A stretch of 64,000 bases of DNA, taken from the sequence record PQ327946.1; one strand, written 5' to 3'. Shown here piece by piece: positions 50,113 to 50,460 of this stretch; the first letter of the stretch is position 1; every line of letters begins with the position of its first letter. Source of the DNA: a phage. The translations under genes and the position numbers were made by a program. The notes below the pieces were generated by a model. That model saw nothing but the letters and a program-made list of their open reading frames with translations. It searched no databases and was not told where the DNA came from.

Positions 50113-50460
50113 TTAATATGGCTTTGCATCAAATTTTCTTTCAATTTCAGGCGTGAAATATAGTTCTTTACCACGCTTAGAAAAGCGGCCAATAATACGA
50201 TAATTATTTTCGTCGAACGTGATATTACCGAGGTCCATAGCTTTTAGCCAATCATCAATACTTCTGTGCAGTTTTATATCAAAATTCCAGTATTGAGAAC
50301 TATTACCACGGATACTACAAGCAGATTCAGTAAAACAACTACTATAAATCTTGTCTTTAGGAACTACTAATTGATAGACACCTTTAATAAACTGAGGACC
50401 TTGCCACTTTGGCTGTTTCGCATCTTCTTCTAATAGAATAGGGTAATAATTAAAATTCAT
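50113..50460 (-). CDS. hypothetical protein (115 aa) between frd and td
   Basis: ORF overlapping the frd stop; no recognisable domain. Confidence 0.4.

Follow-up and report, generated by a model that had tools for sequence, protein, structure and literature searches.

We found that the 115-codon open reading frame between frd and td (here called ORF-X) is in all likelihood a genuine, old and vertically inherited member of the frd-td operon that was lost from phage T4, and not a recent insertion. ORF-X lies in a 64,000-nucleotide stretch of phage DNA (PQ327946.1; hereafter the window, meaning the whole of that stretch). A reading made from the sequence alone had described it as an extra ORF inserted between two genes that are adjacent in T4. 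The adjacency is real. In T4 (NC_000866), frd occupies 145109..145690 and td ends at 145112; the two overlap by 4 nt (ATGA) with nothing between them, and T4 has no copy of ORF-X at this site. The evidence below indicates that T4, rather than the window, carries the altered junction.

The three genes are tightly packed on one strand (Table 1). The length of ORF-X, its 11-nt overlap with frd and its end 13 nt before td were given exactly by the sequence-only reading, as confirmed by the ORF listing and by direct reading of the letters. ORF-X is 348 nt long, and the weak Shine-Dalgarno-like element preceding it is kept in all aligned Tequatrovirus and Mosigvirus copies. No terminator or promoter that would split ORF-X from frd or td was found on the coding strand of the frd-ORF-X-td array. 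The same reading had placed ORF-X in a co-transcribed operon. The tight, terminator-free array stood up to inspection; co-transcription itself would fit this packing. A GC-rich hairpin just downstream of gene 32 (a perfect 7-bp stem, GGGAGAC-TTCG-GTCTCCC, followed by a minus-strand T-run) is likely the terminator that separates gene 32 from a frd.x-frd-ORF-X-td unit. On the opposite strand, a near-consensus sigma-70 promoter-like site (TTGATA-17-TATAAT, 11/12 matches) spans the boundary of ORF-X and td. This may be a chance occurrence in AT-rich DNA: the region contains 19 such sites where 15.5 are expected.

Table 1. Features of the frd-td locus and neighboring DNA, in window coordinates.
Feature	Position	Strand	Description
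ORF-X (td.1, RB32ORF229c, PHROG 1928)	50113..50460	minus	115 aa; ATG start; 13.7 kDa; pI 8.5
frd (dihydrofolate reductase)	50450..51067	minus	205 aa; Pfam DHFR_1, E 5e-19
td (thymidylate synthase)	49239..50099	minus	286 aa; Pfam Thymidylat_synt, E 5e-98; intron-free
ORF-X start codon	50460-50458	minus	ATG; 11 nt inside frd
frd stop codon	50452-50450	minus	TAA
frd extension	~50485-50450	minus	12 added codons including the stop; from junction alignment
ORF-X stop codon	50115-50113	minus	TAA; then 13-nt spacer with TAGGTG Shine-Dalgarno, then td ATG at 50099
td Shine-Dalgarno	50104..50108	minus	AGGTG, in the ORF-X/td spacer; from sequence reading
GGCGGA element	50465..50470	minus	weak Shine-Dalgarno-like, 4 nt upstream of ORF-X ATG; from sequence reading, function presumed
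Direct repeat, left copy	50479..50486	minus	AAATGAAA; holds ancestral frd TGA; from junction alignment
Direct repeat, right copy	50094..50102	minus	TAAATGAAA; holds td ATG; from junction alignment
Promoter-like site	50085-50113	plus	sigma-70-like, antisense
Gene 32	52135-53037		
Hairpin downstream of gene 32	52111-52128		likely terminator
nrdA, part 1	47051-48475	minus	474 aa; ATP-cone, all-alpha domain, first barrel half
Free-standing endonuclease gene	46295-47005	minus	236 aa; I-HmuI NUMOD-like domain, E 8e-8
nrdA, part 2	45316-46305	minus	329 aa; second barrel half
nrdA.2-type ORF	48989-49237	minus	82 aa; DUF5496; phrog_2458
nrdA.2-type ORF, tandem second	48768-48989	minus	73 aa; phrog_2458
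nrdA.1-type DUF4326 ORF	48466-48771	minus	overlaps nrdA start

ORF-X is already known as a sequence, and the novelty implied earlier has to be given up. Hundreds of T4-like genomes have it annotated, and we regard it as an ordinary gene of these phages. In Escherichia phage F2 it is a CDS encoding a hypothetical protein (QIG57478.1) that is 100% identical to the window copy, and 801 bp around ORF-X are 100% identical in phages F2 and JQD51. In T6 (AY262134.2) it is named td.1 (ABI48938.1), and in RB32/RB51 it is named RB32ORF229c (ACP31150.1), with a note in the RB51 GenBank record that it is 'flanked by 9 bp repeat'. These annotated genes and ORF-X are alike in their position between frd and td, in their 348-nt length and in the flanking repeat, and the window protein is 91-93% identical to the T6/RB51 allele. 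ORF-X belongs to phrog_1928 ('unknown function'): residues 4-111 match profile positions 2-125 of 126 (E 3.1e-35), the gene lies between frd and td on the same strand, and the family-invariant residues are present. Distant members and paralogues match PHROG 1928 as well.

The distribution of ORF-X is broad. A tblastn search found it in 582 phage records, 363 of them at ≥90% identity and 219 at <60%. A megablast search with the frd and td flanks returned 647 records close to T4, and the match in the T2 record runs across ORF-X. Presence of ORF-X is the common state: ~363 of ~647 of these records close to T4, slightly more than half, carry it. Clustered relatives are all named 'hypothetical protein', and we found no discussion of td.1, RB32ORF229c or phrog_1928 in the literature. 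In Wilson & Edgell 2009 (PMC2790892) there is a citation of the T6 record but none of ORF-X, and a 2010 review of mobile DNA (PMC2988022) does not mention it. In the JQD51 record (PV204681.1), several product names seem to be shifted by one gene here; for example, 'dihydrofolate reductase' is attached to the CDS of ORF-X, 'hypothetical protein' to that of frd and 'thymidylate synthase' to that of nrdA.2.

Several lines of evidence show that ORF-X encodes a protein. Pairwise dN/dS values were 0.02-0.11, with dS up to 0.93 and differences that are mostly synonymous. Between the two allele groups found in Tequatrovirus and Mosigvirus (F2/PHB12/AlbertHofmann and T6/RB51/REP1), ORF-X had a dS of 0.7-0.9 and a dN of ~0.04. 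Across genera, divergence of the ORF-X protein tracks that of frd. Compared with the window copies, protein identities of frd and ORF-X, respectively, were 46% and 45% in Kanagawavirus Q7622, 46% and 40% in Kanagawavirus PEi20, 43% and 37% in Jiaodavirus, 47% and 32% in Gelderlandvirus, and 34% and 25% in Muldoonvirus. Because ORF-X diverges at a rate like that of frd and has such low dN/dS, we conclude that it is a genuine protein-coding gene, and the substitution pattern indicates strong purifying selection. A chance ORF, or a non-coding spacer conserved for RNA or regulatory reasons, has a negligible probability: it would have to produce this excess of synonymous change, protein-level identity that is still detectable at 25-45% across genera, and a confident AlphaFold2 fold from the family alignment (see below).

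Wherever we inspected the locus, ORF-X was directly downstream of frd. This covers six named Tevenvirinae genera (Tequatrovirus, Mosigvirus, Kanagawavirus, Jiaodavirus, Gelderlandvirus and Muldoonvirus) and the most distant members, from Proteus, Erwinia and Serratia phages. It also adjoined frd on the downstream side in 11/11 loci from IMG/VR. In most genera ORF-X starts either within the end of frd or directly next to its stop, and the genes are packed equally tightly downstream of ORF-X across the genera inspected.

What follows ORF-X is more variable. Kanagawavirus, Gelderlandvirus and Proteus phages have a tandem paralogue of ORF-X, here called X2 (115-148 aa), that is absent from the window. 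In some genera an ORF of 68-70 aa (DUF4858; phrog_9550) lies between ORF-X and td, for example in Serratia phage WSPA (locus L008, 2306-2518), and in Tequatroviruses of the Shinka type this ORF is alone in the frd-td slot (Shinka, locus L010, 2295-2501). Thus, the frd-td interval is a small slot whose content varies, and at least five arrangements of it are seen: empty, ORF-X, DUF4858, ORF-X with X2, and ORF-X with DUF4858.

The intervening segment and the td intron vary too. In RB51, T6, PST and phiC600P9 the spacer that precedes td is longer by ~30 nt (TTAGCTTCATAAAATGTATTATAATTTATAT); REP1 and PHB12 lack this segment, and its absence from the window is one way in which the window allele differs from that of T6, RB51 and PST. 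By eye, this segment looks like a middle promoter, with a MotA box and a -10 element. The td genes of T4, T6 and PST carry a group I intron with I-TevI; the window td has none. Shinka td is annotated as two CDS pieces separated by a 314-nt gap, with no endonuclease annotated. Presence of the intron does not correlate with presence of ORF-X: T4 has the intron only, T6 and PST have both, the window has ORF-X only, and RB69 has neither.

We aligned ten frd-td junctions to compare occupied and empty sites. In Tequatrovirus and Mosigvirus the ORF-X block is bounded by a direct repeat, TAAATGAAA, and in T4 and RB69 there is a single copy, which forms the ATGA overlap of the frd stop and the td start. 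In RB51, T6 and REP1 the repeat on the left side is the exact 9-mer. By itself the repeat is compatible with insertion or deletion. Three other facts bear on the direction. T4 frd and td are nearly identical in DNA sequence to those of the ORF-X carriers RB51 and PST (95-97% for frd and 94-96% for td). The F2-group and RB51-group alleles of ORF-X are ~12% different, like their frd genes. Finally, ORF-X is syntenic in distant genera. These facts favor deletion in T4, and they also indicate that ORF-X is older than the split between the F2 and RB51 alleles. T4 would have lost ORF-X by deletion between the TAAATGAAA repeats and, judged from these comparisons, is most likely a recent deletion derivative at frd-td. 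The description of ORF-X as 'extra' or 'inserted' had the direction wrong: the ORF is common, syntenic and co-diverged with frd, and the T4 alleles flanking its site are 94-97% identical to those of carriers. The direction is less clear for the empty site of RB69, where the frd allele shares only 63% identity with the other alleles.

The opposite history is that a recent mobile cassette (a 'moron' or a homing-type element) landed in a T4-like ATGA junction and duplicated a 9 bp target. We consider this improbable. Close relatives do differ in whether the site is occupied (it is in T2, T6, RB51 and F2, and is not in T4 and RB69), the direct repeat that bounds the block contains the td start, and Shinka-type phages hold a different small ORF in the same slot. 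In addition, the block can move. The Mosigviruses PHB12 and AlbertHofmann have a Tequatrovirus-type frd and ORF-X joined to an RB69-type td, and from this joint we infer that frd and ORF-X move together by homologous recombination. In contrast, a recently landed cassette would not be expected to sit at one position in distant genera and lose identity at the pace of frd, to have two allele groups as diverged as frd itself (at the dS given above), or to leave T4 flanks nearly identical to those of carriers. ORF-X encodes no endonuclease or other mobility function, and its base composition is native (GC 33.3% and GC3 25%, like frd); a foreign origin judged by composition was rejected because both values match the neighboring genes. 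Ancient residence next to frd, followed by loss from T4, is the reading that we retain.

The 11-nt overlap of frd and ORF-X is a derived feature of the window allele. Two extra A's in an A-run of frd shift the reading frame past the ancestral TGA, and frd continues into the start of ORF-X, adding 12 codons including the stop. This +2-nt change is present in the window/F2 allele and in AlbertHofmann, and is absent from T6, RB51, REP1, PHB12 and T4. In T6, RB51, REP1 and PHB12, a gap of 19-20 nt separates the frd stop from ORF-X.

The region downstream of td has peculiarities of its own. In the window (45316-48475), nrdA is split into two ORFs around a free-standing endonuclease gene (Table 1). 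The split arrangement is shared with F2, and nrdA is intact in JQD51 and T4. It is similar to the arrangement in Aeromonas phage Aeh1, whose nrdA is also fragmented (PMC3045599). Between td and nrdA, F2 and JQD51 have one nrdA.2 gene and an 87-bp gap, whereas the window has two nrdA.2-type ORFs. The window is thus not simply F2 downstream of td.

The ORF-X protein belongs to a small family of mostly standalone proteins. We searched 1.84 billion representative proteins exhaustively with a profile and obtained 50 matches, 47 of them standalone and 95-148 aa long. The three long matches (P0064, P0065 and P0068) look spurious: two are beta-sandwich proteins of the PEGA or CarboxypepD_reg type, and P0068 has only scattered weak matches to unrelated families. 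In the alignment of 50 members, W19, G91, K95 and G97 are invariant and L9, G27, Y29, F93 and F102 nearly so, with a GRFxKxG motif. The window protein has W19 (within QxKW), G27, Y29, G91, F93, K95 and G97. None of the conserved positions in this alignment is acidic or a His, Cys, Ser or Asn, which makes an enzyme unlikely.

The absence of a recognizable domain, noted earlier from the sequence, held in scans of Pfam and NCBIfam, which found none in ORF-X and nothing consistent among the 50 family members. The Pfam family DUF5960 (PF19385) was rejected, with 14.1 bits (E 0.065) against a gathering cut-off of 24.1 and a match in 1/50 members. Single-sequence and profile searches of the PDB gave no credible match; the best, a fragment of a transthyretin ancestor (E 0.15), looks spurious. 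AlphaFold2 gave a pLDDT of 82 with 21 sequences and of 92.7 (pTM 0.85) with 50 sequences, and the same elements both times: strands at residues 6-12, 27-34 and 62-64, a helix at 68-77, and strands at 80-82, 86-96 and 99-104. These models predict, with high confidence, that the small and mildly basic ORF-X protein forms a beta-barrel of OB-like topology in which a single helix follows strand 3.

Since T4 and RB69 lack ORF-X, it must be dispensable, at least in laboratory hosts. It would be expressed early or in the middle period alongside DHFR and thymidylate synthase, probably by translational coupling. It is possible that ORF-X is a non-enzymatic binding module whose synthesis is tied to that of DHFR by translational coupling along frd-ORF-X-td. 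Such a protein could serve deoxynucleotide synthesis in the phage as an accessory or adaptor that binds DHFR, thymidylate synthase or another member of the complex; alternatively, it could tether nucleic acid through a face formed by W19, Y29, F93 and K95. A role as a binding module or adaptor for the nucleotide-precursor machinery is a weak guess and speculative. The more specific proposal, that PHROG 1928 is a hitherto unrecognized, dedicated small subunit or adaptor of T-even deoxynucleotide synthesis with a new OB-like fold, coupled to DHFR and binding DHFR or thymidylate synthase or tethering them to nucleic acid or the replisome, is rather doubtful. If it were true, classical T4 biochemistry would have missed this protein only through the deletion in T4.

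A host-directed role appears about equally likely as an adaptor role. ORF-X might be a small host-takeover or counter-defense protein whose adjacency to frd is historical and whose host target is unrelated to folate or thymidylate metabolism. This is possible, and we hold it only tentatively. The protein is small, dispensable, encoded in an early operon and confined to T4-type enterobacterial phages, with 47 small standalone representatives. Kanagawavirus, Gelderlandvirus and Proteus phages encode a tandem paralogue, and the gene shows presence/absence polymorphism; all of these traits are typical of accessory and anti-defense genes. Other observations fit a counter-defense gene poorly. PADLOC-DB profiles for defense and counter-defense gave no match at E ≤1 for four diverse members, and Pfam and NCBIfam had none. 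A dN/dS of ~0.05 reflects stabilizing rather than arms-race evolution, and linkage to frd was invariable at the loci inspected, in more than eight phage groups.

As a sequence feature, ORF-X changes nothing. What our results do indicate is that T4, the reference for this group of phages, is atypical at frd-td, and that an ancestral gene takes on the look of an insertion when T4 serves as the template. PHROG 1928 has no Pfam entry, is linked to DHFR over many genera, is under purifying selection and has a confident predicted fold. It is a reasonable target for experiments.

In several records, ORF-X is labeled a 'putative homing endonuclease' (AlbertHofmann, WilhelmHis, FriedrichZschokke and ValerieMcCarty04, and a Klebsiella phage record). 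That ORF-X is a free-standing or degenerate homing endonuclease is highly improbable. Real homing endonucleases are abundant in this region (I-TevI, MobE and SegG), and the 'KGVYQL / HGIY' motif of the family recalls the GIY of GIY-YIG enzymes; the tripeptide G-(I/V)-Y is the sole basis for the label that we found. A GIY-(9)-YIG arrangement picked out by eye was rejected, since the second motif ('IYS' in the window) is not conserved in the family. In hhalign comparisons, 13 residues aligned with T4 I-TevI at a probability of 1%, and the probabilities for MobE and SegG were 0.1-0.2% (T4 MobE, 0.1%). An HNH enzyme like MobE or I-TevIII was rejected because the 50 representatives conserve no His, Asn or Cys. 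We therefore reject the label in favor of a vertically inherited operon member, and the label, which is spreading in GenBank, should be dropped.

GIY-YIG enzymes (I-TevI and SegA-G) resemble ORF-X only in a GIY-like tripeptide that starts a beta-strand and in the endonuclease-rich region. ORF-X lacks the YIG and the catalytic Arg and Glu and has no conserved Asn in place; its distribution, unlike theirs, is syntenic and vertical. The predicted model likewise differs from the alpha/beta fold and separate DNA-binding domain of those enzymes, with neither present in ORF-X. The paralogue X2 shares with ORF-X the PHROG 1928 match, the invariant Trp, the HG(I/V)Y strand, the GRFxKxG hairpin near the C-terminus and the frd-td interval, but has an insertion of ~20 residues (PTIxxYKRNP) after the Trp and is only 19-27% identical. 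The predicted elements of ORF-X follow the order beta1-beta2-beta3-helix-beta4-beta5 of an OB-fold, and OB domains that bind nucleic acid or protein, such as the Teb1 OB domain, RPA14/32, PriB, S1 and HIN, may be among its nearest counterparts in architecture.
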